This document shows positions 6,001 to 26,130 of a DNA stretch of 64,000 nt, piece by piece (position 1 is the stretch's first letter; each line of letters begins with the position of its first letter). The notes beneath the pieces were generated by a model. That model ran no database searches. It was not told where the DNA came from and was given only the letters and a program-made list of their open reading frames with translations. The position numbers were made by a program, and so were the translations under genes. This DNA is from an uncultured Spirochaetota bacterium (GTDB lineage: Bacteria > Spirochaetota > Spirochaetia > SZUA-6 > Fen-1364): positions 25,204 through 89,203 of the forward strand of contig CAWJRT010000017.1 of assembly GCA_963845325.1 (NCBI GenBank). Reading direction: 5' to 3'.

Positions 6001-7477
6001 CGTGAGCTGCGCCACATCCTTGACAAGGTCCAGCGACGACGGCGGGAACGATGGCGCGGTGGAGCTCACCGAGTAGGCGGTTTTCGCGGAGAGGCTGGCG
6101 GGCGAGGAGAGGTCCACCTCGACGGTGTGGCTGCCTACTCCCGAGGTCGGGATGTTCCCCAGGACGTCGAAGACGGAGTTCCCCGAAATCGAAACGGAAA
6201 ATGCCGGGGTGCCGGACCACGACGTGGAGCCGTCGACGAGCACCTGCCCGATCACGGTCCCGCTGCCCGTAGCGGTGATGTGCACGCGGGCATTTTTCAC
6301 CGTGTCCCCGAGATTGTAGGGCGATGCGGGCAGCTCCACGGATACAGCGGTCACGGTGAGGGTGGAAGGGGGGGCACTGGCCACGTTTACGGGAACAGCG
6401 ACGGAACCTAGCACGTCGTTGCCGCCGCCGTCCTTGCCCCTGACGGTGAGAATGAGATCGAAGCTCCCGCTGGACCCGCCGTTCAGCGCCTTGCTGCGCT
6501 GGAGCACGGAAAGCAGGACCGAGCGCGCGGTGGTCTGGTCAGTTCCGCTGGACAGGCTCATGGGCAGGCTTTCCCACCCGCCGTCCTCCTCCGGCCACGC
6601 TGAGTACGTCCGGCTCTCGCGGATGTCCGTGACGTTTACCGAGCCTCCCCGTGCGCCGATATCAAGCGAGAGCGGCAACAGGCCGTCCGACCCGCTGAAG
6701 CTCAGGCTCGATGGGGACGCGGTGAGCGACAGCGAGGCGCCCAGGACGTTGATTGCCACGCTGGTCGTGGCAGTACCAGTGAGCCCTGCCGCATCCGTGG
6801 CAGTCACCTGGAAGACATACGTCGAGCCGTTGTTGCCCGTGAAGCTCGCGGAGGCAAGATTCGTCTTGGAGAGCCAGGGGTGGAGAGGACCGCCGTTGAT
6901 GCGGTACGCCACGTCGTAGTGGTCGATGGGAACGGCGAACGTGGATGACCAGGAAACCGTGAAGGTCGCCTTCGTGCTGACCGGGCCGCTCGGAGAGGTG
7001 AATACGACGGTTGGCCCAGAGTCGGCGATGAAGGGTCTGGAGTGCGTCGGAGGCGAAGAAAGTCCCGTTTGCGCGTTGACCGCGGTGACCCAGAAATAGT
7101 AAGTGTTGCCGTTCGTGAAGCCCGGAGAAATGGCGAGCGTCACGGAGGTCGCAGGCGCAGGGGCACCCGGTGTCGAGCCGATAGCCACAATGCCAGCGGC
7201 TTCATCCGTGGGGCTTTGATTCAACACGTACGAATACGAGTTCCCCGAATGTAAGGCCATAGAAATTCGATGCCCCCCAGTTCGCCTGAAATTGTGTGGG
7301 ATTGGTCCAATAAGCCTGGTTCGCGCCTGGCCCGATGTTGATAAACGAAGGAACGGTCGGAGTCTGCGCCATGGCGGGCGCGGCAACCACGACCAGGAAT
7401 GCCAGGAAAGGCAAGAGCCGCGAGAGCGGAGCGTTCGGCGTTCGGCGTTTGTCGCCAAACGCCTTGCCAGTATTCAT
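1..7477 (-). CDS. Giant secreted multidomain protein (signal peptide, FN3/Ig-like domains, long beta-rich core, helical region, C-terminal FN3-like repeats); frameshifted, 3' end outside window
   Basis: ATG at 7477 (MNTGK...LLPFLAFLVVVAAPAMA-Q signal peptide). Continues through the frames of ORFs 5167..7458 and 4061..5206, then an open frame from ~4143 to position 1 (GIPIGPGVFLDELGGGFFVN...DNTPPTTPVV...SGIVGYEYGVGT). Frame breaks at ~7245, ~5235, ~5210 and ~4143, mostly in G/C runs. Confidence 0.8.
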
Positions 7478-13185: not shown

Positions 13186-14175
<990 letters not shown>

Positions 14176-14179
<4 letters not shown>

Positions 14180-14960
14180 TTCCGAATGCCCTGGTTGAAA
14201 CCAGCGGTCTTTCCGTGCGTTTTGCCCAGGCAAGATTCAGCGGCCGCTCGATTGTGCATGCATTGAAGGACGTGAGCCTGGCGGTCTCTCCGGGGGAAAC
14301 GCTGGGCGTCGTCGGGGAAACCGGCTGCGGCAAAAGTACCCTCTGCCGATGTGTCGTCCGTCTGTACCGGCCAAGCAGCGGAAAGGTGTTCTTCAATGGA
14401 ATGGATATCAGCGCGGTCCGGAGCGGAAGCTGGGCGGCCTGCGCCGCGCCGTGCAGATGATCTTCCAGGACCCCGCCGACTCCCTGAACCCGCGCCTGCC
14501 GGTGGGATCCATCATCGAGGAGCCTCTGCTCATCCAGCGCACGTTCGGGGCAGCCGAGCGCCGCCGGCGGACAGCCTCCCTGCTCGACGAGGTTGGTCTC
14601 CCCCGAAGCGCCGCGGAAAGGTACCCGCACGAGTTCTCCGGCGGCCAGCGCCAGAGGATCGCGATTGCCCGAGCCCTCGCGCTTAAGCCGTCGCTCCTGG
14701 TGTGCGACGAGCCGGTCAGCGCGCTGGACGTCTCCATCCAGGCCCAGATCCTGAACCTGCTCCTGGACCTTCAGCAGGAGTACGGGCTGGCCATGATCTT
14801 CGTCTCCCACGACCTTTCGATTGTCCGGCACATGTCCGATCGAGTAGCGGTGATGTACAGGGGCGAGGTCGTCGAGCTTGCCCCATCGGAAGAGATCTAC
14901 AGAAATCCGCAGCATGATTATACGCGCGCGCTGCTTGCTTCCATCCCGGGATCCGGATAA
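14176..14960 (+). CDS. Peptide ABC transporter ATP-binding protein, OppF/DppF-like (frameshift near 14420)
   Basis: GETGCGKST in ORF 14176..14460; [24 protein letters not shown] in ORF 14349..14960. Confidence 0.88.
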
Positions 14961-14980: not shown

Positions 14981-15034
14981 TTGCTTCCAGTGCACGATAT
15001 GTGTTACACTTTCTAAATGAAATTACATTTCGTG
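14981..15034 (+). promoter_or_regulatory. Sigma-70-type promoter of the regulator overlapped by two CAC-N5-GTG operator-like boxes
   Basis: TTGCTT(14981)-18 nt-TACACT(15005) with extended TG; boxes CACGATATGTG 14993-15003 and TACATTTCGTG 15024-15034. Confidence 0.6.
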
Positions 15035-15041
15035 GTTGATA

Positions 15042-15968
15042 ATGGCTGACTTTTCGACAAGACTGCGACAGCTTCGAAAAGAGAGCGGGCTTCGACAAAA
15101 GGACCTGGCGGATGCCTTCGGCACCGCCCAGACTACCATCGCGAACTACGAGAACAAGCTGCGATTTCCCGACGAGCCGATGCTCGGCAGGTTTGCCGAG
15201 TACTTCGACGTATCCCTTGATTACCTGCTGGGGCGAAGTGACGCAAAGCGCAAAACGCGGGAGTGGGTGCCGGAAAACAGGGAGCCGCCGGAGACGCCGC
15301 TTCCGTCGTCAAGCGATGCCGCGCGGTACCTCGACCTGGTTCGTCAGGGCGGCAGCGACGAGGCAGCGCAGCTCATCGAGAGTCTTTCCCGGGGCGCGCT
15401 GGGGATCCGAAGGACGTACCTTGAAGTCCTCGAGCCAGCGTTGAAGGAAGTAGGCCGGTTGTGGGCTCACGGAAAAATCTCGGTGGGTGAGGAGCACATG
15501 GTCAGCCAGGCCACCGAACGAATCATGTCCCGGATCTATTCACAGGAAGGAACGCCTCGCGCAGCATCCGGCGAGGCCAGCTGCTGCGTCATGGCGGTTT
15601 CCAGCGAGCAGCACCTGATCGGTCCACGCATGGTGTCTGATTTCCTGCGACTTGACGGCTGGAGCGTCCAGTTCCTCGGCGGAAACCTGGGGATCAGGCA
15701 CCTCCTGGAGGTGCTGGCGGCACGGCCCGTGAACCTCCTGGCAGTTTCCGTCACTTCTCGGAACAACGTCACGGAGGCGGCTGATCTCATCGCGTCCGTC
15801 AGGGAGAAGGACTTCCTGAAAGAGACCCGCGTCATCGCGGGAGGCCAGGCCCTCCAATCCAGGCCCGACTTGTGGGAGGAGATCGGAGCGGACGGGACCG
15901 GCCGTGACGCGGAATCAGCGGTAGTGACCGCAGACGAGCTCATTCGAAAGCGGCTCCCCCTCCACTGA
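15042..15968 (+). CDS. XRE-family HTH regulator fused to a cobalamin-binding (CarH/LitR-type) domain
   Basis: N-terminal LRQLRKESGLRQKDLA...TIANYEN...VSLDYLLGRS (HTH_3); W-x9-EH motif (WAHGKISVGEEH); E-x-H-x-x-G motif (SEQHLIG); Rossmann strands LLAVSVT and VIAGGQA. Confidence 0.88.
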   Translation: MADFSTRLRQLRKESGLRQKDLADAFGTAQTTIANYENKLRFPDEPMLGRFAEYFDVSLDYLLGRSDAKRKTREWVPENREPPETPLPSSSDAARYLDLVRQGGSDEAAQLIESLSRGALGIRRTYLEVLEPALKEVGRLWAHGKISVGEEHMVSQATERIMSRIYSQEGTPRAASGEASCCVMAVSSEQHLIGPRMVSDFLRLDGWSVQFLGGNLGIRHLLEVLAARPVNLLAVSVTSRNNVTEAADLIASVREKDFLKETRVIAGGQALQSRPDLWEEIGADGTGRDAESAVVTADELIRKRLPLH

Positions 15969-16001
15969 GATGAGCCTGCGAGAGGCCGATTTATTGGCAA
16001 T

Positions 16002-16104
16002 CACATTATGTGTACAAAAGTAGTTGATACCGGGCCGGAGATTAATATTTTCAGTATATTTATTGACTTTTAAGAGACAATCCATGATCATAACACATAT
16101 CGTG
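16002..16104 (+). promoter_or_regulatory. AT-rich promoter of the ABC operon with two CAC-N5-GTG operator-like boxes
   Basis: Boxes CACATTATGTG 16002-16012 and CACATATCGTG 16094-16104; TTGACT at 16063 with a weak -10 (GATCAT) 17 nt downstream. Confidence 0.6.
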
Positions 16105-16121
16105 ATGCAAGGGGTTATGAA

Positions 16122-16811
16122 ATGAGCGTCGTGGAAATTGTCGATGTGAAGAAACATTACATGCTTGGCGATACCCGGGTGGACGCCCTCCGCGGGGTAT
16201 CCCTGAAAATCGAGAAGGGAGAGTTCGTTGCAATTGCCGGCCCCTCGGGCTCGGGCAAGAGCACGATCCTCAACATGATCGGCTGCATCGACAGCCCGTC
16301 GGACGGGCTGGTGATGATCGAAGGCACCGAGGTGGAACACCTCAGCGACACCGAGCTCACACGCTACCGCCGGAACAAGATCGGGTTCATCTTCCAGTCC
16401 TTCAACCTGATCCCCGTGCTGAATGTATACGAGAACATCGAGTTCCCGCTCCTGCTCAGGCGAAACCTCTCCCGCAAGGAACGGGAAAAGATCGTCACGC
16501 GCTTCGTGGAGGAGGTCGAGCTCTCCGACCGGCTGAAGAACAAGCCCAACGAGCTTTCCGGAGGCCAGCGGCAGCGTGTGGCAATCGCGCGGGCGCTCGT
16601 GACCAACCCCCTGATCATCCTCGCTGACGAGCCCACGGCGAACCTTGACAGCGCCACGGGGCACAGGATCATCGAGCTGATGAAGACGATCAACGAGGTG
16701 GAGAAGACGACCTTGATCTTCTCCACGCACGACACTCACATCATGGAGCACGCCCGTCGCGTGGTGAACCTCCGGGACGGGCTGGTCACCGGCGTCGAGT
16801 CCCGGGGGTAA
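16122..16811 (+). CDS. ABC transporter ATP-binding protein, LolD/MacB family
   Basis: [50 protein letters not shown]. Confidence 0.92.
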
Positions 16812-16814
16812 GCG

Positions 16815-18204
16815 ATGATCACGGTAAAGATCGCACTCCGGTCACTCGCCCGGCGCAAGGGCCGCATGGCCCTCATCGCGCTCCTTGTAGCCTTCGGGAC
16901 CCTCCTGCTGGTGTACGGCACTACGCTCACGCGCTCCGCGGCCACTGCTTCGCGCAACTCGATCATCCGCAACTTCACGGGAGACTTCATCGTCTACGCC
17001 GCGAAGTCGCGCGAAATTCCCTCGCCGTTCGCCTTCAACACGCCCCTGCCGGTCGTGCCGAACCTGGACAAGCTGACGGCGTACCTGTCGGCGCAGCCCG
17101 AGGTGCAGACCGTGGTTCCCTACGCACAGAACTACGCTCTTCTTTCCCTGGACCTGAAGGGCTCCAAGGTGGACGTGCCGTTCGTCTTCTACGCCGTGCC
17201 GCCGGCGGAGTACGCGAAGACCTTTCCCAACGTGAAGATGGTGGAGGGAGATTTTCTCACAAGCGGCGGCGGGATCCTCATCAGCCGCTACCAGAACGAC
17301 CACTACGAAAAGCGCTACGGCGTGCGGCTTTCCGTCGGCCAGGAGGTCACGGTCCTGGGGTTGAGCGACGGCGGCGGCGTGAACGCGTACCCCACGAAGG
17401 TGCGGGGGATCTTCGAGCCCCTCTACTACAAGAACGTCTTCGATTACATCAACTTCATGGACATGGCCTCCTACTCCCAGGTCTTCAACTTCACCGGGGT
17501 GGCCCGCGGCTCGCTTCCGGAGGCCCTGGACAAGGGGCTGGAGGCCGCGCAGCAGAGCGAGGACAACATCTTCGCGCTGGCAGGGCCGGCCGGCGCCGCC
17601 ATTGACACCTCGAAGCTGAAGTCGGAGTCCATCTCGGGATATACCATGGTCGCCGTGCTCCTGAAAGACCGCGCCGCGGCCCCCGCGCTCCGCGCACGGC
17701 TCGCCGCCCAGGGCCTGGAGGTGAAGACCTCGCCCTGGGACGAGGCCTCGGGGTTCTTCGCGCGCGTCGCCTCCGCCCTGCAGGCATTCATCTGGTTCGC
17801 CACCGGCCTGATCTTCCTCGTTGTGGCCTTCATCTTCATGAATACGCTCATCATCAGCATCATCGAGCGCACCGCCGAGATCGGCACCATGCGGGCTCTT
17901 GGCGGCGAGAAGAGCTTCATCCGGCGGATCTTTCTCTCAGAGACCCTCATCTTGAACCTTGCCGCCTGCCTGGTCGGCATGGCCGTCGGGCTCGTGCTCG
18001 TGCTGGTGACTCGCGTCCGGCCTGCCGCTGCCGGACACGATCTCGCAGTACCTTATCGGCGGCGGTCCGCTTCCCCTGGTCCTGAGCCTGGGCCCGTTCG
18101 TGACGGCCCTCGTCGTGGTGACCGCCGTTTCGGCGATCGCCACCATCCTCCCGATTCGCCTTGCCACGCGCATCACGCCGCTGGCCGCCATGAACGATCG
18201 ATAG
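16815..18204 (+). CDS. FtsX/LolE-like ABC permease 1 (frameshift near 18010)
   Basis: One N-terminal TM helix, large periplasmic domain, IIERTAEIGTMRALG motif; last TM and ITPLAAMNDR-stop in the shifted frame. Confidence 0.85.
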
Positions 18205-18214
18205 GAGCACGGCA

Positions 18215-19541
18215 ATGTGGTTCTACTTCTCCGTCGCCCTGAAAAACGTCTTCCGTCAGAAAAGGCGGTCTTTCACCCTCGGCATCAACTACGCGGTGGT
18301 CACCTTCATCCTGGTGCTGCTGTTCTCCTTCTCCCAGGGGGCGATCAGGAACATCTCCACCAACCTCGTGCGGTCCACGGCAGGTCACATCACCATCTCC
18401 GGCTCGTACACCGCTTCGGGGCGCGTGTTCCTCGGGGTCCGCCGCTCTGCCGAGATTGCCGCCGCGGTCCGGCAGGTCTTCGGAGGGACGGTGAAGATCA
18501 TCCCGCGGTACGTCGTGCGGTCCGCGCTGTACTACAAGGGCATCTCGAAAAGACTGGATTTCACGGGCATCAACACCACGCTGGACTCCGCCTTGAAGGG
18601 GCAGCTGCAGTTCGTGAAGGGCGGCTGGGAGGAGTTTGCCGCCGCTTCCAACGGGGTCATCCTGCCGAAGGACGTGGCGGACTACTTCAGCCTCTCCCTG
18701 GACGATGAGATCGTGGTGGCCGCCCGCGCGCGGCTCGGCGCGTTCAACACGGGCACGCTGAAGGTGAAGGCGATCTACGAATCGGTGAACTTTTTTGCCC
18801 AGGGTCTCGTCCTCTGCCAGCTGCCCTTCACCCGGGCCCTCGACCTGGGGGAGACAGGACACCTCCTCGGCCCTGTACCTGTACTTCCCCGACACCGGCA
18901 ACCTGAACCTCAAGCGCAGCCAGCTTTCGGCGGAGCTGGTGCGGCGGGGTTTCGAGGTGAACAAGCCCGCTGACGCCTCCGCGGCAATTGATGCGGTCAC
19001 ATCGGCCTCCCCCACGTACAAGGCGGACAGCTCGGGTGCGGATTCCAACCGGCTTACTCTCTCCACGATCGACGAGGCGGTGAGCATCGTGACGATCATC
19101 TCCTCCGTCGTGAACGCGGTCGGCGCAGTTGTCGCGCTCATCATGCTGTTCATCATCGCCGTGTCGATATTCATCAACCTCCGTATGACCATCAACGAGC
19201 GGCTGCGGGAGATCGGCACGATGCGCACTATCGGCCTGGGATCGGGCGGGATCACGCTGCTGTTCATGATCGAGAGTGTCCTCCTCGCGCTGCTCTTCAG
19301 CCTCATCGGTGTGGCCGCTGCGCTCGTGGTGGCGGGGATCCTGGTCACGCTGGTTCCAGTGCCGGCAATCGGGGCCATGGCGCTGTTCCTGGACAAGGGC
19401 CACGTGGTGCTCATCCCGCGGGCGGGCGACGTGGCGGGAGTCGTGCTGTTGATCGCCGTCTTCTCCGCTGTGTTCTCGTTCTTCCCCGCCCGTCGAGGAG
19501 GGAAGATCAGGCCGGTGGACGCGCTGACGCGGATATTCTGA
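18215..19541 (+). CDS. FtsX/LolE-like ABC permease 2 (frameshift near 18850)
   Basis: ALKNVFRQKRRS N-terminus; INERLREIGTMRTIG; ends PARRGGKIRPVDALTRIF. Confidence 0.85.
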
Positions 19542-19558: not shown

Positions 19559-20331
19559 ATGAGGAGCTCTGTTCGAAGGACGATGGTTCTCCTGTTCCTG
19601 GCGGCGGCCGCAGCGCTGGCGTTTTCGGCCGCGCCCCCCGCCGACCCGGCGGCCGAGAGGATTGCCCGGGGTGGGAATCGCAGCTGAACACGGAGGGGCT
19701 TGATGTCACCGCGACATTCACCCTCGTGCAGAAAAAGCCGGGGAGACTGACCGCGTGCTGCGCGTGCAGACTTACCGTCGCGACAGCGCGGACATGTATA
19801 CGATCATCTTCCAGTATCCCGACAGCGAGAAGGGAAAGGGGTACCTGCGACGGGGCGACGACTTGTACTTTTACCTTCCTTCGACCCGGGAGTTCGTGTA
19901 CAAGAACCGCAAGGACAACATCGGGTCCACGGATGCTCGCACGGACCTTTTCGGCCGCCAGAAAGTCCTGGAACAATACACCGCCTCCTCCGCCGGCGCG
20001 GCACAGGTCTCCAAGTGGGAGTGTTCAGGTAGTGAGGCTGGACGCGAAGGTGCCGGATGTCTCTTATCCGGTCCAGAAATGGTATGTACGCAAAACCGAC
20101 GGGCTGCCCGTGAAGGTGGAAAACTTCTCTGCTTCCGAAACGCTCCTCGTGACCTACTACTTCATAGAGTACAAGAGCCTGGGAAACGGCAAGTCCCTTT
20201 TTACCAAGCTCCTTGCGGTCAACAACCTGGAACTGGGCCAGCAGACGTTCCTGACCAACGACAACATTTCCACGGCCTTCATTCCCGATTACACCTTTAC
20301 CAAGGCGTACCTCGAGGAGAAATCCCGATGA
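19559..20331 (+). CDS. LolA-like 'outer membrane lipoprotein-sorting' protein (frameshifted)
   Basis: GGGAG RBS, signal peptide MRSSVRRTMVLLFLAAAAALAFS; FQYPDSEKGKGYLRRGDDLYFYLPS, IGSTDARTDLF, IPDYTFTKAYLE across three frames. Confidence 0.75.
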
Positions 20332-21625
20332 GGCGCGTTGTGCCTGCCGCAGGCGCGGCGCTCGGCACCTCGATCGCCTTCGCGCTGGGGCTCCTGCTCA
20401 CGACCATCCCCACCGCTCATGCGCAGGATTCGGGACAGGACATGTTCGACACCTCGGCGTTCGACCAGAACGTTCAACAGAGCAAGCAGCAGGAGCAGAA
20501 AACAAGGCTGGAAACGCAGTTCGGGGGAAACCTCCTGTGGGATACGTCGGTGACGACGACCACGGATTTCAGCGGCTACGGCGGAGGGGGTTCGTTCTCC
20601 GGAAAGGCCTTCGTCAAGGTGAGCGTTCCCGATTTCGGTGCCGCCTACCTCGCCTACAACTATTCCAAGAGTCTCTACCAGGGCGCCGCCGGCACGATCC
20701 CCGGCGCCCCGTTCGGTCCCGGCGGCTCCCTCCTCGCGCAGTCCGCTGGAGACCTGTTCGGAGCAAGCTATGAGCTCTGGCGGAGTTCTACACGAGCCTT
20801 GACATCGCGCAGAAAGTGTTCTTCCGCATCGGCAACCAGCTCCTGGCGTGGGGGCCATCCGTGATCTGGACCCCCGTGGACTTCGTCAACCTCCAGCGGG
20901 TGAACCCTCTTGCCGCCCTGGACCTGCGCGTGGGCAAGCCGGGCGTGCGGATCACCGTGCCGATGGGCGTCAGCAACCTTTTCATCTTCGCCGACTTGTC
21001 AGGCACGGTGACATCAGGCACGGTCAACGACCCTGTACGGTCGACGAACCTCGCCGAGCGCTGGGACCTCACGGTCCTCGGAGTGGAGCTCGCCGTCACG
21101 GGCATCACCGGCTTCGGGATCCAGAGCCAGGCCGGCTTCGACTTCTCCGGCAGGCTGCTTGGCTTCGACCTGTACGGCGAGCTCACCGCGGGCATTCCGA
21201 CCGGCAACGCGGCGTTCACCTGGGCATCGTCCCTGGGCTTCCAGAGGTCCTTCGGGGATCTGAGCTACTGGAGCGTTGCAGGGGAGCTCTTCTACAACGA
21301 CGCCGGAACCGCGGACATCTCCGGCTATCCTGCCCTGGCCGCGGCGCAGGCGTTCACTCCTTTCTACGTGGGCAAGGTGTATTCTTACGCCGCGCTGACA
21401 CGAAGCCACCTGCTCATCGACGGTGTGAGCGCGACGATCGCAGGCTTCGTCGACCTTTCGGACGTGTCGTTCCTCAGCCGGCTGTCAGCCTCGATCAACG
21501 TGCCCAAGGTCCCGCCGTTCACGTTCAGCCTCAGCTGGGCAGGAGGAGGCTCAAACAGGGCCTTCACGTACGTGACAGGCAACAATTCCCTGACCGCGGA
21601 GCTGCAGGTACGAGTGGAGTTCTGA
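20328..21625 (+). CDS. Probable outer-membrane beta-barrel protein (frameshift near 20780)
   Basis: Signal peptide ending AHA-Q; FRIGNQLLAWG...WTPVDFVN motif; amphipathic beta-strands; C-terminal LQVRVEF fits a BAM beta-signal. Confidence 0.7.
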
Positions 21626-21651: not shown

Positions 21652-24046
21652 TCACGATGACGCCTCAACCGCCCCGAACGCCGCCTCGAGGATGCTGTCC
21701 ACGTCGATGTGCATGGATCGATAGAGGTCCTGGCGGCTGCCGGACTGCCCGAAAGCCTCCACGCCGAGCGGCGTCAGCGGCTGGCCAAAAACGCTGCCCA
21801 GCCAGGCAAGCGCACCCGCTGCGCCGTCTATCACGGTCACGATCGGCGCCGCTCGCTGATGAGGGGTGATAAGTCGGCCCAGCAGCCGGCCGCCGCCGGC
21901 GCCATGGGTGCGCCAGTCCCGGTAGGCGCGCCGCGGGCTGCAGAGATGGATGAGGTTTGCGCCGATCCCTTCATGCTCCAGGAACTCGGCGGCCTCGATG
22001 GCTTCCGGAACCATCGCGCCGCACGAGACAAGATGGACCAGGGGTTCCTGGCGCGCTTCGCGCAGCAGGTAGCCTCCCTCCAGGAAGTCCCTGCACAGCG
22101 CCTCGCCGCCCCGCCGCGCGAGTGCAGGCGCCATGAGGGATTGGTCCACGGGCTTCGTGGACAGGCGCAGGTAGGTGCTGCGGCCGCTGCTTCGATTGCA
22201 GCACTGCCGAAGACCTTCCAGGAGAGCCCATTCCACTTCGGCGGCAAAGCATGGTTCGTAATAGTCGAGCGCCGGGCAGCTCCATCCCGAGGGAGGCAGT
22301 GACCGAAGACTGGTGCGCCCCACCTTCAGGGGAAAGGGAGACGCCGCTTGGCGTGCCGACAAAGATGAAACGCGAACCGCTGTATAATCCGAAGATCAGG
22401 GCATCCAGGCCCCGGCAGACGAACGGGTCGTAGAGTGTTCCGACGGGAAAGAGGAGCTGCCCGTTCATCTCGTGTGACAACCCCAGCTGCCCAAGGAGGG
22501 AGAAGAGGTTCATTTCCGATATGCCCAGCTCGATGTGCCGCCCTCCGGGGGAAGCTTTCCAATTCACCAGGCAGGGGCGGCCCTGCTCGAAGTCGGCAAC
22601 GTCATGAAGCGAAAACTGTCCCACCTTGTTGATCCAGCCGGCAAGACCCGTGGAGACGGAGACGTCGGGAGACGATGTGACGATCCTTTCCCCGATCCCC
22701 GGCATGTCAGCCAGGCGCAGGAGTGCCCTGCCAAAGGCCTCCTGCGTAGACGTCACGTTCATCGGCTGATCCGATGCGCCGGGAAGCTCGAGAGGGATGT
22801 CCACCGCCCTCACGGGAACAGCGCGGAGATGTCGGCGCGGTCCGTGAGCGGGAGCGGTCGAATCGGCGGGAAGGAGCCCGAGCCGCTCGGCAGAAAGGCG
22901 GCACCACCGCCCCTCCTCGCTTTCGGGATCAAAGCTCGCCCATGGGTCGTGGGGGTCCGCCTGGAGGCGCACGGCAAGAGACTCCATGCGGGACGGGCTG
23001 AGCAGCACCGAATGATTGAATGGATCCGCAGCGATGGGGAGCCTCCAACCCTTGATCGTATAGGCAAAAATGACTGTCGGCCGGCCCGTGTCCGCTTCGG
23101 CCTGCGCAAACGCGCGCAGGAGTGCACGAAGGTCATGGCCCCCGAGATTGCTGAGGAGCCACGGAAGCGCAGCATCCGGCTGCTCGGAGAGACAGAGGGC
23201 AATGTCGGTTCCCCCGGGTCTGTTCCGAAGTCTCCCTCGAATCTCGGAACCACTCATGCGGATCAGGCTCTGGTACTCCTCATTGCACATCTCGTCGATG
23301 CACACCCGCAGCGCCTGGCCACCCTCCCGCGCGAAGGCTGCTTCGAGGGCGGTGCCGTACTTCGACTCGATGACCTGCCAGCCGCTGTCGGCGAACAAGG
23401 CCTTCAGCTGGGCCGCCCGGACGCCCGGGACGACACGGTCCAGGCTCTGGCGGTTCAGATCGATGACCCACAGGGAATTGCCCAGCTGCTGAAGCGAGCC
23501 GTCGATGATCGCCTCCCAAACGTTGCCCTCGTCCAGCTCCGCGTCGCCGCTGACCGCGATGAATCTCTTCGACGTTGTGTCTCCGAAATGCGCCTGCGCA
23601 TATCTCTGGACCAGGGCCGCGAACGAAGGCGCGACTGCGCCCAGTCCCACGGACCCCGTGGAAAAGTCCACGGCGTCCCCGTCCTTCGTGCGGCTGGGAT
23701 ACGCCTGGAGTCCGCCGTACTCTCGCAGCGTCGTCAACCTCTGGCGAGGCAGCACACCCAGGAGGTACATTGCGGCGTGCATCACGGGCGAAGCGTGCGG
23801 CTTGACCGCGATCCTGTCAGCGGCGGTCATGGAACGGAAATACAGGGCAGTCAGGATGGACACGGCAGATGCGCACGACGCAGGATGTCCCCCGATCTTG
23901 GTCTTCTCCAGGTTCGGACGCCCATGATTTGCGTGGTCGATGATCTTCATGGAAAGCCACAGGAGGCGGTCCTGGATCTTTTCCAGGATGCGGACTTCCG
24001 GCTCGAGATCGGCCTCCGAGTGTGCGCGGGTCGCTGTCTGGGGCAT
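21652..24046 (-). CDS. Pyruvate dehydrogenase E1 (AceE)/transketolase-like ThDP enzyme (frameshift near 22270)
   Basis: KIGGHPAS, LQAYPSRTKD, FSTGSVGLG, ThDP motif GDAELDEG...N, HIELGISEMN, EGGAHQS, LGVEAFGQSG. Confidence 0.85.
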
Positions 24047-24659: not shown

Positions 24660-25735
24660 CTACCCCATGATCGCTGCCGCGCCGATGAACGCGCCATACC
24701 GGCGGGCTGCCGCCTGGATTGCGCGCAGGTCGCGTTCGTTCTGATGGGAAAAGAAGCGCGGCACAACGGTCACCGCATCCCTCCCCCGGGTCCGGGTCCA
24801 CGTTCCGACGATCCTGCCCTGGACCGCGATCGTCGGGCTGAGCAGGTTCCCAAGATGCCGCGCGTGGGCCGGATCCAGGGAAGCACCACGGTCTCGGTAG
24901 GCAACAAGAAGCTCGTCGAAGGGCGGAAGAAGCAGGGCAGCGGGCTTCAGCGGCGAGGTCAGGGGTGCGGCCAGGGGCCCCCAGAAGCTGCGACCGTCGA
25001 AAACATCATGACCGAGCATGCCCGCCGCCGCCTCAAGGCCCGACCCGGCCTCTTTGAGAGTCAGTCCGGTCCACCAGGCGAAATCCTTGACCGTGGCCGG
25101 TCCGTGACTTCGAAAATACCGGAGTGCAAGCTCCGCGAGGGCCTCGTCGCGGGCGCGCGGCTTTGCGGCACCAGCCCATTCGTCAAGGAGCACAAAGGTC
25201 TGTTGCTTTCCCACTCGGGGGCCGAAACACAGCACCCCGTCCTGCGCGAGGCGCTGCAGGATGTGGATGCCCCTCTGGCCTTCGGGTGTGATGCCAGAAG
25301 AACGGAGCAGCCGGTACGCCTGGTCGCGGGTCAGTTGTCCACCGCCGCGCAGCGCCTTTTCGAGCGCCTTCCCGGCTCGGAGGAATGCATTGGGCTCGAG
25401 CTCGAGCTGCCTGTAGCGGCCGGCGAGGCTCGCGATCACGCGCGGTGCAAGGAGATGGAGCATCCAGCGGGCGTCTTCAGCGGCAACGAAGTGGAGAGTG
25501 CCCCGCATAGGCCACGTTCGAAGGATCGAGGCATCCGCGAGGGCTTTCTCCACCGTCGACTCAAGGGCACCCGCGGAGCGCAGCCCCACGGCCCACAGCG
25601 CGCCACGGTAATCCTGGGCCTGGACGGCGCCGAGATGGAGCACGACGTCGCGGGGGGTGAGCAGCGCTTCGCCGCAGGCGTGCTGGTTGAAGAGGCGCTG
25701 CCGGGCAACGCCCTGAGCCCTACCTCCAGACAGCG
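24660..25735 (-). CDS. AlkZ/YcaQ-family (HTH_42) winged-helix DNA glycosylase
   Basis: VARQRLFNQ, catalytic-type VQAQD, RTWPMRGTLHFV, YFRSHGPATVKDFAWWTGL, LLPPFDELLVAY, GRIVGTW. Start codon uncertain. Confidence 0.85.
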
Positions 25736-26130
25736 AAAACCACCCCGAGGCCGGCAAACAGGACCAGCTCGTACAGGGTGAAAAGTGCCCACAGGCTCTT
25801 GGGCCGGCTCTCGAAGATGCTGTTGGTGAGCTGTGTCGCCGAGCCGACCCCGACCCAGATGATGGCGCCGGTGATGAGACCCCTCCACCACTCGGTAATG
25901 CCAAGGCTGCGGATGAGAACGGCCAGCACGTAGGATGCGACCAGGGAGCACACAAGGGTCAGCAGGTACATGCCGGGGGACGGCTGCATCTGTCCCCTCT
26001 TCCATCCCGTTTTTTCCATCATCGCCATCCAGGGCTTTCCGAACAGCGGCCCGTACCAGAGCGTGCCGACACCCATGAAGGCAAGGGCGCCGAGCACCCA
26101 GGCGATCCAGTTGATCTGACCGAACTGCAT
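25720..26130 (-). CDS. DUF1761-like four-helix membrane protein
   Basis: AGGAGG RBS; INWIAWVLGALAFMGVGTLWYGPLFGKPWM matches the family pattern. Confidence 0.8.
   Translation of the reverse strand: MQFGQINWIAWVLGALAFMGVGTLWYGPLFGKPWMAMMEKTGWKRGQMQPSPGMYLLTLVCSLVASYVLAVLIRSLGITEWWRGLITGAIIWVGVGSATQLTNSIFESRPKSLWALFTLYELVLFAGLGVVFAVWR

Follow-up and report, generated by a model that had tools for sequence, protein, structure and literature searches.

A Predicted Light-Released Repressor Family in Spirochaetota That Joins an XRE-Type Head to a CarH-Like Cobalamin Sensor

Introduction

The window analysed here is a stretch of 64,000 nucleotides from the genome of an uncultured Spirochaetota bacterium (contig CAWJRT010000017.1). 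The gene under study, at 15042..15968 on its forward strand, encodes a protein (P0001) in which an XRE-type helix-turn-helix (HTH) domain is joined to a sensor that resembles the adenosylcobalamin (AdoCbl) module of the photoreceptor CarH. To our knowledge, all characterised B12 photoreceptor-repressors carry a MerR head. The question raised by this locus is whether such a light-sensing module works here behind a different DNA-binding domain and, if so, at which promoters. From the sequence evidence we favour a reading, to which we assign a probability of roughly 0.7, in which the protein is a repressor that depends on AdoCbl and is released by light, with a DNA-binding domain swapped relative to CarH and two phased operators. 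A light- or B12-responsive repressor with a CarH-type sensor on an XRE head had been proposed in the initial annotation, and motifs, fold, photoreceptor relatives, gene linkage and predicted operators at carotenoid (crt) promoters support that proposal.

Results and Discussion

Domain Architecture

The gene is one intact open reading frame (ORF) that runs from an ATG at 15042 to a TGA at 15966-15968. An alternative TTG lies at 15036, two codons 5' of the ATG, but 20 relatives begin at an aligned M-A/S-D-F, which makes it an unlikely start. The coding features are listed below; TtCarH denotes the Thermus thermophilus protein.

15042..15968, plus strand: regulator gene with XRE head and B12 sensor (P0001, 308 residues), from the ORF and Pfam; the orthologue L007 is 82% identical over residues 1-303
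15063..15227, plus strand: HTH_3 (XRE/Cro-C1 type) DNA-binding domain, residues 8-62 (Pfam E 1.3e-12)
15321..15536, plus strand: B12-binding_2 helical cap, residues 94-165 (Pfam E 5.6e-12; model helices 92-168)
15462..15497, plus strand: codons of W141-x9-E151-H152, the adenosyl-capping motif of CarH, aligned to W-x9-EH of the TtCarH B12 domain (chain 8c35)
15597..15923, plus strand: B12-binding Rossmann domain, residues 186-294 (Pfam E 7.8e-12; Foldseek)
15606..15623, plus strand: codons of E189-x-H191-x-x-G194, encoding the lower axial His loop, which aligns with the loop that carries the cobalt-ligating His in TtCarH

All three Pfam domains exceed their curated cut-offs. The HTH_3 match scores 48 bits against a cut-off of 23 and covers positions 1-55 of the 55 in the profile; HTH_3, HTH_19 and HTH_31 are the sole significant N-terminal families, and no MerR-type family is among the nine listed at E ≤ 1 in the Pfam scan of the 308-residue protein. 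The NCBIfam CarH equivalog covers only residues 119-245, in the sensor part, and scores 44 bits there, where the cut-off is 400. The AlphaFold2 model, with 114 relatives in the alignment, has a mean predicted local distance difference test score of 91.6 and is laid out as a five-helix HTH head, a disordered linker (residues 73-80), a helical bundle and a Rossmann domain, after which the chain ends. Pfam and the model thus bear out the arrangement first described for this gene, an XRE HTH followed by a four-helix cap and a Rossmann domain, and both motif strings given with it, WAHGKISVGEEH for W-x9-EH and SEQHLIG for E-x-H-x-x-G, are found in the protein. As judged by its domains and motifs, the protein belongs to the XRE family on account of its head, and its sensor places it in the CarH-like light-responsive B12-domain group. 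A two-copy complex prediction for residues 88-308 scored 0.16 against a mark of 0.42 and was used neither for nor against any reading.

Cofactor Motifs and Their Conservation

In full, the upper motif reads G138-x-x-W141-x9-E151-H152 (GRLW-x9-EH, residues 138-152) and the lower motif E189-x-H191-x-x-G194-x41-S236-x-T238-x28-G267-G268. CarH is defined by D/E-x-H-x2-G/P-x41-S-x-T/V-x22-27-GG together with Wx9EH (PMC9304148); the last Rossmann-motif spacer, with 28 residues, is one above the published range of 22-27. In the alignment, W141, E151, H152 and H191 fall on the Trp, the Glu, the His and the cobalt-ligating His of the TtCarH B12 domain.

A protein search gave 494 matches at E ≤ 1e-3, and the best 120 of these (41-81% identity) were examined. 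An XRE-type HTH and both B12 domains are present in 115 of the best 120, the other five being shorter. The family is large: the HTH_3, B12-binding_2 and B12-binding architecture, a search for which had been suggested at the outset, is shared by at least 115 database clusters. The only organism-identifying name among the best 120 is "Spirochaetia bacterium", with the product name "cobalamin-dependent protein", and JGI product names are mixed ("MtbC1", "XRE family" and "MerR family, light-induced"). For the conservation alignment, six shorter proteins of the 120 were dropped, which left 114 full-length relatives. G138, W141, E151, H191, S236, G267 and G268 are invariant in all 114, and H152 and G194 are kept in 110 and 113, respectively. 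Because W141, E151, H191, S236 and the GG pair are fixed across these relatives, the motif match is not due to chance.

This conservation bears on the idea of a CarA-like repressor, with the same fold, no need for B12, and a separate antirepressor or signal. There is precedent in Myxococcus, where CarA is a CarH paralogue that lost B12 dependence (PMC9304148), and the window genome has two or three paralogues of the regulator. However, CarA has lost the Trp of Wx9EH (PMC9304148), whereas the present family keeps the Trp, the Glu, the His and the lower His throughout, and we regard a CarA-like protein as very unlikely.

Relatives of the Sensor

The closest solved sequences are those of a photocobilin, 8j2w/8j2x (2.6e-12 with the single protein; 7.8e-29 for 8j2x with the family profile). 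CtMerR (8jbs; profile 8.6e-24) is the third-best distinct PDB sequence by both phmmer and the profile. Methyltransferase corrinoid proteins (1y80, 7xcn, 3ezx) score 1e-21 to 1e-18 with the profile, TtCarH 3.5e-10 and AerR (7te2) 1.7e-9. By structure, the top Foldseek matches are 8jbs, TtCarH (5c8d/5c8a) and 8j2w, all at probability 1.00, and 8j2w superposes with a root-mean-square deviation of 2.2 Å over 209 columns. Experiments have shown AdoCbl binding and a green-light response for both photocobilins and CtMerR (PMC10979010; PMC11796333).

A methyltransferase-type corrinoid protein fused to a regulator, which would sense methyl-corrinoid or redox state, is a further candidate, in line with the automatic JGI name "MtbC1" and with profile scores for 1y80, 7xcn and 3ezx that are better than that of TtCarH. 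The light-responsive 8j2x and 8jbs nevertheless score better still, the Wx9EH cap is conserved, and methyltransferase genes adjoin none of the 21 family loci scanned; such a fusion seems to us highly improbable.

Distribution and Paralogues

In a sample of 401 genomes from the phylum, full-length matches occur only in the window's own genome, and the remaining matches cover the sensor domain alone. At the level of the order, a search of 92 genomes found full-length copies in 21 genomes (23 loci), confined to two bacterial families. The initial annotation remarked that no characterised example is known from this phylum, and the named sources of relatives are Spirochaetia/Spirochaetota. Searching genome contigs with the single protein gave 35 loci, among them one full-length relative (L007). 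Nine of the 34 others were checked: these matches, from Planctomycetota, Anaerolineales and Sulfurimonas, are proteins of ~240-380 residues that match in the sensor part only, and they were dropped. No HTH-like stretch was seen by eye at the N-termini of these nine (no family scan was made), and the Planctomycetota proteins, also by eye, lack Wx9EH.

The window genome (4.94 Mb, 35 contigs, 69% estimated completeness) holds a second full-length copy on contig C15 (locus L102; 44% identity) and a third, head-less copy of 220 residues (G000:C17:120920-121546, L103:6891-7553; 37% identity) that consists of B12-binding_2 and B12-binding only. The head-less paralogue lies ~32 kb past the window end, between genes for a GlgC-like nucleotidyl transferase and a PAS histidine kinase and adjacent to mfd (TRCF); no predicted operator of ≥15 bits was found in its locus. 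In a maximum-likelihood tree, the window copy, L007, both copies of genome G456 and L104 form one clade (97/94), within which the G456 copies are divergent from crtI-photolyase operons. The C15 paralogue is placed in the sister clade of operon-embedded copies.

Across the two carrier families, the regulator occurs in 12 of 13 genomes with a phytoene/squalene synthase and in 9 of 33 without one, a count that is supportive only, the genomes being related and partly incomplete. In a third family of the order (G401-G424), all 24 genomes have the synthase and none has the XRE-B12 regulator; pigments or hopanoids there must accordingly be controlled otherwise.

Predicted Operators

The HTH stretch A-Q-T-T-I-A-N-Y-E is identical in all 21 family loci compared by alignment, and a single DNA motif is for this reason to be expected. 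A de novo motif finder, for which the 150 nt preceding each of the 21 regulator genes were the sole training data, returned a 15-bp, A/T-centred pseudo-palindrome with two copies in 15 of the 21 loci and one copy in two. Its sites in the window, with the promoter-like element that two of them flank, are as follows.

14992..15006, plus strand: predicted operator O1 (19.0 bits) in the promoter of the regulator gene itself; at position -53 relative to the ATG in 5/5 subclade loci
15021..15035, minus strand: predicted operator O2, an inverted copy just 5' of the start codon, 17.7 bits; at -24 and in the same orientation in 5/5 subclade loci
15999..16013, minus strand: predicted operator D1, upstream of the promoter of the ATP-binding cassette (ABC) operon, 18.0 bits; outside the training set and kept in L007
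16063..16091, plus strand: promoter-like TTGACT-17-GATCAT before the ABC operon; 3 promoter-like sites against 0.6 expected in shuffles
16091..16105, minus strand: predicted operator D2 (20.8 bits), directly next to the -10-like hexamer of the promoter before the ABC operon; outside the training set and kept in L007

No further site of ≥16 bits was found in the window. The own-promoter pair O1/O2 is part of the training set. O1 lies inside the spacer of a -35-like (14982-14987) and a -10-like (15005-15010) hexamer, both picked by eye and below the promoter-scan threshold. D1 and D2 bracket TTGACT-17-GATCAT and form the sole inverted repeat reported in the spacer between the regulator and the ATPase gene (14 nt, 86% complementary), and D2 is the fourth-best site in the genome. 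The D1-D2 spacing is 92 bp in the window versus 19 bp in L007, where the pair is set around a much better promoter. Compared with L007:6956-6959, positions 16014-16090 of the window contain ~73 extra A/T-rich bases with promoter-like hexamers of their own.

A scan of the whole 4.94-Mb genome gave 16 sites of ≥16 bits, and four promoter regions with paired sites account for 10 of them. Two of these regions are those of O1/O2 and D1/D2 in the window. The genome's best site (22.1 bits) and one of 18.3 bits stand 40 bp apart in the divergent promoter of a carotenoid cluster (G000:C15:285620-285700), with crtB and a lycopene-cyclase gene on one side and an operon for HMG-CoA synthase (HMGS), an acyltransferase, crtI, idi2 and the C15 paralogue on the other. 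Another pair (21.3 and 18.7 bits; G000:C15:296576-296623, L102:12577-12624) precedes a fasciclin-domain gene (L102:12645-13046; 9e-43) that is followed by a major facilitator superfamily (MFS) transporter gene, an unexpected candidate member of a light regulon. Outside this genome, the HMGS-crtI-regulator operon of L088 is preceded by an untrained pair of 23.2 and 21.0 bits, 41 bp apart.

The centre-to-centre spacings in nine promoter classes are 19, 31, 31, 32, 40.5, 41, 51, 52 and 92 bp. These distances keep phase with the DNA helix at 10.5 bp (R 0.87, p ~3e-4 versus uniform spacing), a figure to be read with the classes being not fully independent and several periods having been examined. 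In the second carrier family, the proximal motif copy fills the promoter spacer near the ATG and another copy lies upstream. The -10-like element of these promoters (L091-L101) ends ~10 nt 5' of the ATG, and the regulator mRNAs are probably leaderless or nearly so because the promoter is so near the start codon.

A lone site of 19.9 bits (G000:C14:116401-116415, locus L113) is situated at the very start of a called LacI-type regulator ORF, ~250 bp from a divergent operon for an MttB-family methyltransferase and a corrinoid protein. It could reflect chance or a link to corrinoid metabolism.

Gene Neighborhoods

The neighborhoods of 21 of the 23 full-length loci were fetched (two on very short contig ends were left out), and three to four ORFs were scanned per side. 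Carotenoid/isoprenoid genes (crtI-like, polyprenyl synthase, HMG-CoA, mevalonate) or a DNA photolyase gene lie within this range in 9 of 21 loci, and the photolyase is a neighbor in five. Both G456 copies (59% and 53% identity to the window protein) are near crtI-like oxidases, a photolyase and a polyprenyl synthase. L088 has HMG-CoA synthase and a crtI-like gene, L097 the mevalonate pathway, and in L093, L095, L096 and L100 a photolyase gene stands beside the regulator. At L102, the operon order is HMG-CoA synthase, acyltransferase, crtI/HpnE-like oxidase, type-2 isopentenyl diphosphate isomerase (idi2; 343.7 bits against a cut-off of 281.3) and, last, the regulator paralogue, and the operon is divergent from phytoene/squalene synthase (crtB) and the lycopene-cyclase-domain gene. 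The initial annotation had noted that carotenoid genes are not adjacent. This is correct for the window; it does not hold as a sign of unrelatedness, with the 44% paralogue embedded in a carotenoid/mevalonate operon under the best pair of sites.

The window copy has an Opp-type ABC importer upstream and a Lol-like ABC exporter operon downstream, the genes of which are listed here.

16122..16811, plus strand: LolD/MacB-type ABC ATPase, with which the putative target operon begins (ABC_tran 1e-34)
16815..19541, plus strand: two FtsX-type (LolC/E-like) permease genes; the first loses frame near its end and the second is split (18215-18973 and 18795-19541)
19755..20864, plus strand: LolA_like protein, last recognisable gene of the operon (9.3e-8; L007 orthologue 1.1e-29)

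The same operon, with its genes intact, also lies 3' of the regulator in L007. There the ATPase orthologue matches the LolD model at 2e-68, below the cut-off of that model, and the permease orthologues have 470 and 443 residues. In the 49% copy at L104, read from the DNA, an ABC ATPase gene follows the regulator before the contig ends. Transport of carotenoids or glycolipids to the outer membrane through the exporter is an attractive idea.

On the other side of the regulator, OppF is split into 14176-14460 and 14349-14960, and OppD contains an odd low-complexity insert (frame breaks within 13186-14960). Breaks of this kind in OppD/OppF and in both permease genes, the Pfam match of the first permease being lost after residue 398, could point to a decaying or non-functional copy within a degraded locus. 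Yet the regulator ORF is full length, has every invariant residue and shares 82% identity with an orthologue whose operon is intact. An estimated completeness of 69% in only 35 contigs suggests that the breaks in 13186-14960 and 16815-19541 stem from assembly indels and not from decay. We consider a decayed copy most improbable.

Further genes in these loci are recorded for completeness. A few kb past the ABC operon are genes for a transketolase/DXP-synthase-like protein (21974-24046, minus strand) and an AlkZ-like DNA glycosylase (24663-25955, minus strand). Most of the L091-L101 regulators come after a gene trio for adenosine deaminase, ABM monooxygenase and histidine phosphatase. In L089, a run of N (6890-7050) directly 3' of the regulator hides its neighbors.

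Weighing the Light-Released Repressor

A number of observations weigh against a light-released repressor. First, several residues of the sensor differ from those of TtCarH or of a published signature. Gln190 and Asn215 align with what we take to be the Arg-Asp dimer salt bridge of TtCarH. The residue aligned to His132 of TtCarH is Ala142, and His occurs there in none of the 114 relatives. The SignatureFinder signature of light-responsive B12 domains comprises GxxW, EH, GxxH and GxxxP (PMC11796333). Its GxxW and EH elements are present here; in GxxH, Ser188 replaces the Gly (Gly in 81 of 114 relatives), and in place of GxxxP the protein has G213-x3-G217, with Pro in 2 of 114 relatives at a column that aligns with the Pro of SasPcob and TtCarH. 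Second, single operator sites are only modestly more frequent than an independent and identically distributed model predicts (11 versus 5.75 at ≥17.7 bits; 4 versus 0.94 at ≥20), and the case for operators rests for that reason on pairing and promoter location. The two full-length paralogues are indistinguishable by operator, and no site of ≥10 bits was found within 5 kb of the genome's own photolyase gene (C15:308417). Third, in 12 of the 21 loci none of the scanned ORFs is a carotenoid, isoprenoid or photolyase gene, the permease genes 3' of the regulator have lost their frame in the present assembly, and kinship among the genomes means that counts across them overstate independence. Finally, no phytoene synthase was seen in the genomes of two other ABC-linked copies, G465 (89% complete) and G457 (70%); this weakens the ABC/LolA-like operon as a carotenoid exporter, with both genomes being incomplete.

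The missing His calls for a revision. The two motifs had been taken to form a light-triggered bis-His state. In TtCarH, however, the upper ligand of the light-state bis-His adduct is His132, directly after the Trp, which is required for tetramer break-up (PMC10442372), and not the EH of Wx9EH. The bis-His step is thus not supported for this regulator, given an Ala142 that is never His in 114 relatives. The missing His is no argument against photoreception as such, since alignments show CtMerR and SasPcob to be likewise without a His after the Trp.

The same missing residue would suit a dark sensor of B12 availability, a repressor or activator that follows the cellular AdoCbl level, with no physiological role for light. 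By all sequence criteria the module would bind B12, the window copy sits between transporters rather than light genes, and the strong lone site described above stands between the MttB/corrinoid-protein operon and the LacI gene. Against such a sensor, three cobalamin riboswitches already serve B12 homeostasis in this genome, the recurrent neighbors and predicted targets (carotenoid, mevalonate, photolyase) fit light and not B12 supply, and photolability of AdoCbl beneath a Wx9EH cap has been seen in all cases tested (PMC11796333). We judge a dark B12 sensor unlikely, though it is the alternative to which we give the most weight, and continue with light-released repression.

Comparison with Known Systems

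CarH and class I LitR (Thermus thermophilus, Myxococcus xanthus, Bacillus megaterium; 5C8A-5C8F, 8C31) have the same four-helix cap with Wx9EH over a Rossmann ExHxxG-SxT-GG domain. They share with the regulator a one-component layout with an N-terminal DNA-binding domain, a family-level link to carotenoid and photolyase genes, and operators (here predicted) that overlap promoters. The B12 domain of TtCarH matches at a Foldseek probability of 1.00 and a template-modeling score (target) of ~0.8, but with only ~22% identity. The CarH head is a MerR winged helix with an RxWERRY recognition helix and its operator consists of three to four tandem 11-bp direct repeats (PMC9304148), whereas the regulator has an XRE/HTH_3 head and predicted pairs of 15-bp pseudo-palindromes 19-92 bp apart. 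The His after the Trp, found in many but not all CarH proteins, occurs in none here, and the salt-bridge positions are not conserved. Because it lacks the MerR head, the tandem-repeat operator and the His after the Trp, the regulator should not be filed as CarH.

CtMerR (Chloracidobacterium thermophilum; 8JBS/8JBT; "group 2" of SignatureFinder) is the best Foldseek match and shares the missing His; it forms a tetramer, binds AdoCbl and responds to green light (PMC11796333). It differs from the regulator in its MerR head and in having both GxxH and GxxxP. Photocobilins (SasPcob 8J2W/8J2X, AbDPcob 8J2Y) differ in that a globin-like domain that binds biliverdin is found at their C terminus and a DNA-binding domain is absent. 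AerR and CarA, neither of which senses light through AdoCbl as CarH does, contain the same two-subdomain B12 module, in AerR without a DNA-binding domain. With respect to the head, the XRE repressors 434 cI, ImmR of ICEBs1 (7T8I), SinR and DdrO have the HTH_3 domain in common with the regulator (7t8i, 4e-7) as well as palindromic operators that overlap promoters, but none of them is known to be switched by a cobalamin domain. Cooperative two-site binding is classical for phage repressors.

No description of an XRE/HTH_3-cobalamin-domain regulator was found in the literature searched, which did not include reviews in subscription journals. In section 12 and the Fig. 9 legend of PMC11796333, "HTH" is named among the output domains fused to such sensors, none of them characterised, and the word XRE does not appear there. 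The present family may be one of the "HTH" nodes of the sequence network in that paper (Fig. 9, Fig. S9).

Proposed Mechanism

The window genome encodes a PduO-type adenosyltransferase, by which it can make the AdoCbl form, and has three cobalamin riboswitches, from which we conclude that it uses B12. AdoCbl that is ligated by His and capped by Wx9EH serves as a photolabile chromophore; in CarH its adenosyl group nucleates head-to-tail dimers and tetramers (PMC10442372; PMC9304148). In the dark, AdoCbl-loaded sensor domains of the regulator would associate as they do in CarH and would thereby place pairs of HTH heads on two 15-bp operators that are integral helical turns apart. With operators that overlap a -35/-10 spacer or a start site, transcription would be repressed. 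Green or near-UV light would then cleave the Co-C bond, upon which the oligomer would dissociate, cooperative binding would be lost and the genes would be expressed. The light-state chemistry must differ from that of TtCarH because the His of the bis-His adduct is absent.

Most likely, as its predicted sites suggest, the window copy represses its own gene and the adjacent Lol-like ABC export operon. Given an identical recognition stretch in the C15 paralogue, both proteins probably share a regulon that also takes in the fasciclin/MFS pair, and they may act at all four paired promoters. At the level of the family, pigment, DNA-repair and envelope-export genes appear to be those turned on by light. 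More tentatively, and at rather less than even odds, the family could constitute a distinct class in which AdoCbl-dependent contacts between sensor domains bridge two XRE dimers on helically phased operators, in which light breaks this DNA loop or clamp with no bis-His adduct, and in which Lol-like export and carotenoids are co-induced by light.

Implications

The natural pairing of an XRE head with a light module, if true, would show the AdoCbl switch to be portable, and would provide a new compact green-light repressor/operator pair for optogenetics with its operator already predicted. While no surprise in principle, the finding is of interest for B12 photobiology and optogenetics. A family without the His that serves tetramer break-up in TtCarH is a natural test of light signalling without a bis-His adduct. 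With a Lol-like exporter and a fasciclin/MFS pair among the predicted targets, light control would reach beyond the usual set of pigment and repair genes. If the proposed reading is true, it would give a first handle on light sensing in free-living Spirochaetota, and light-inducible Lol-like export together with carotenoid synthesis would amount to light-controlled remodelling of the cell envelope in spirochaetes.

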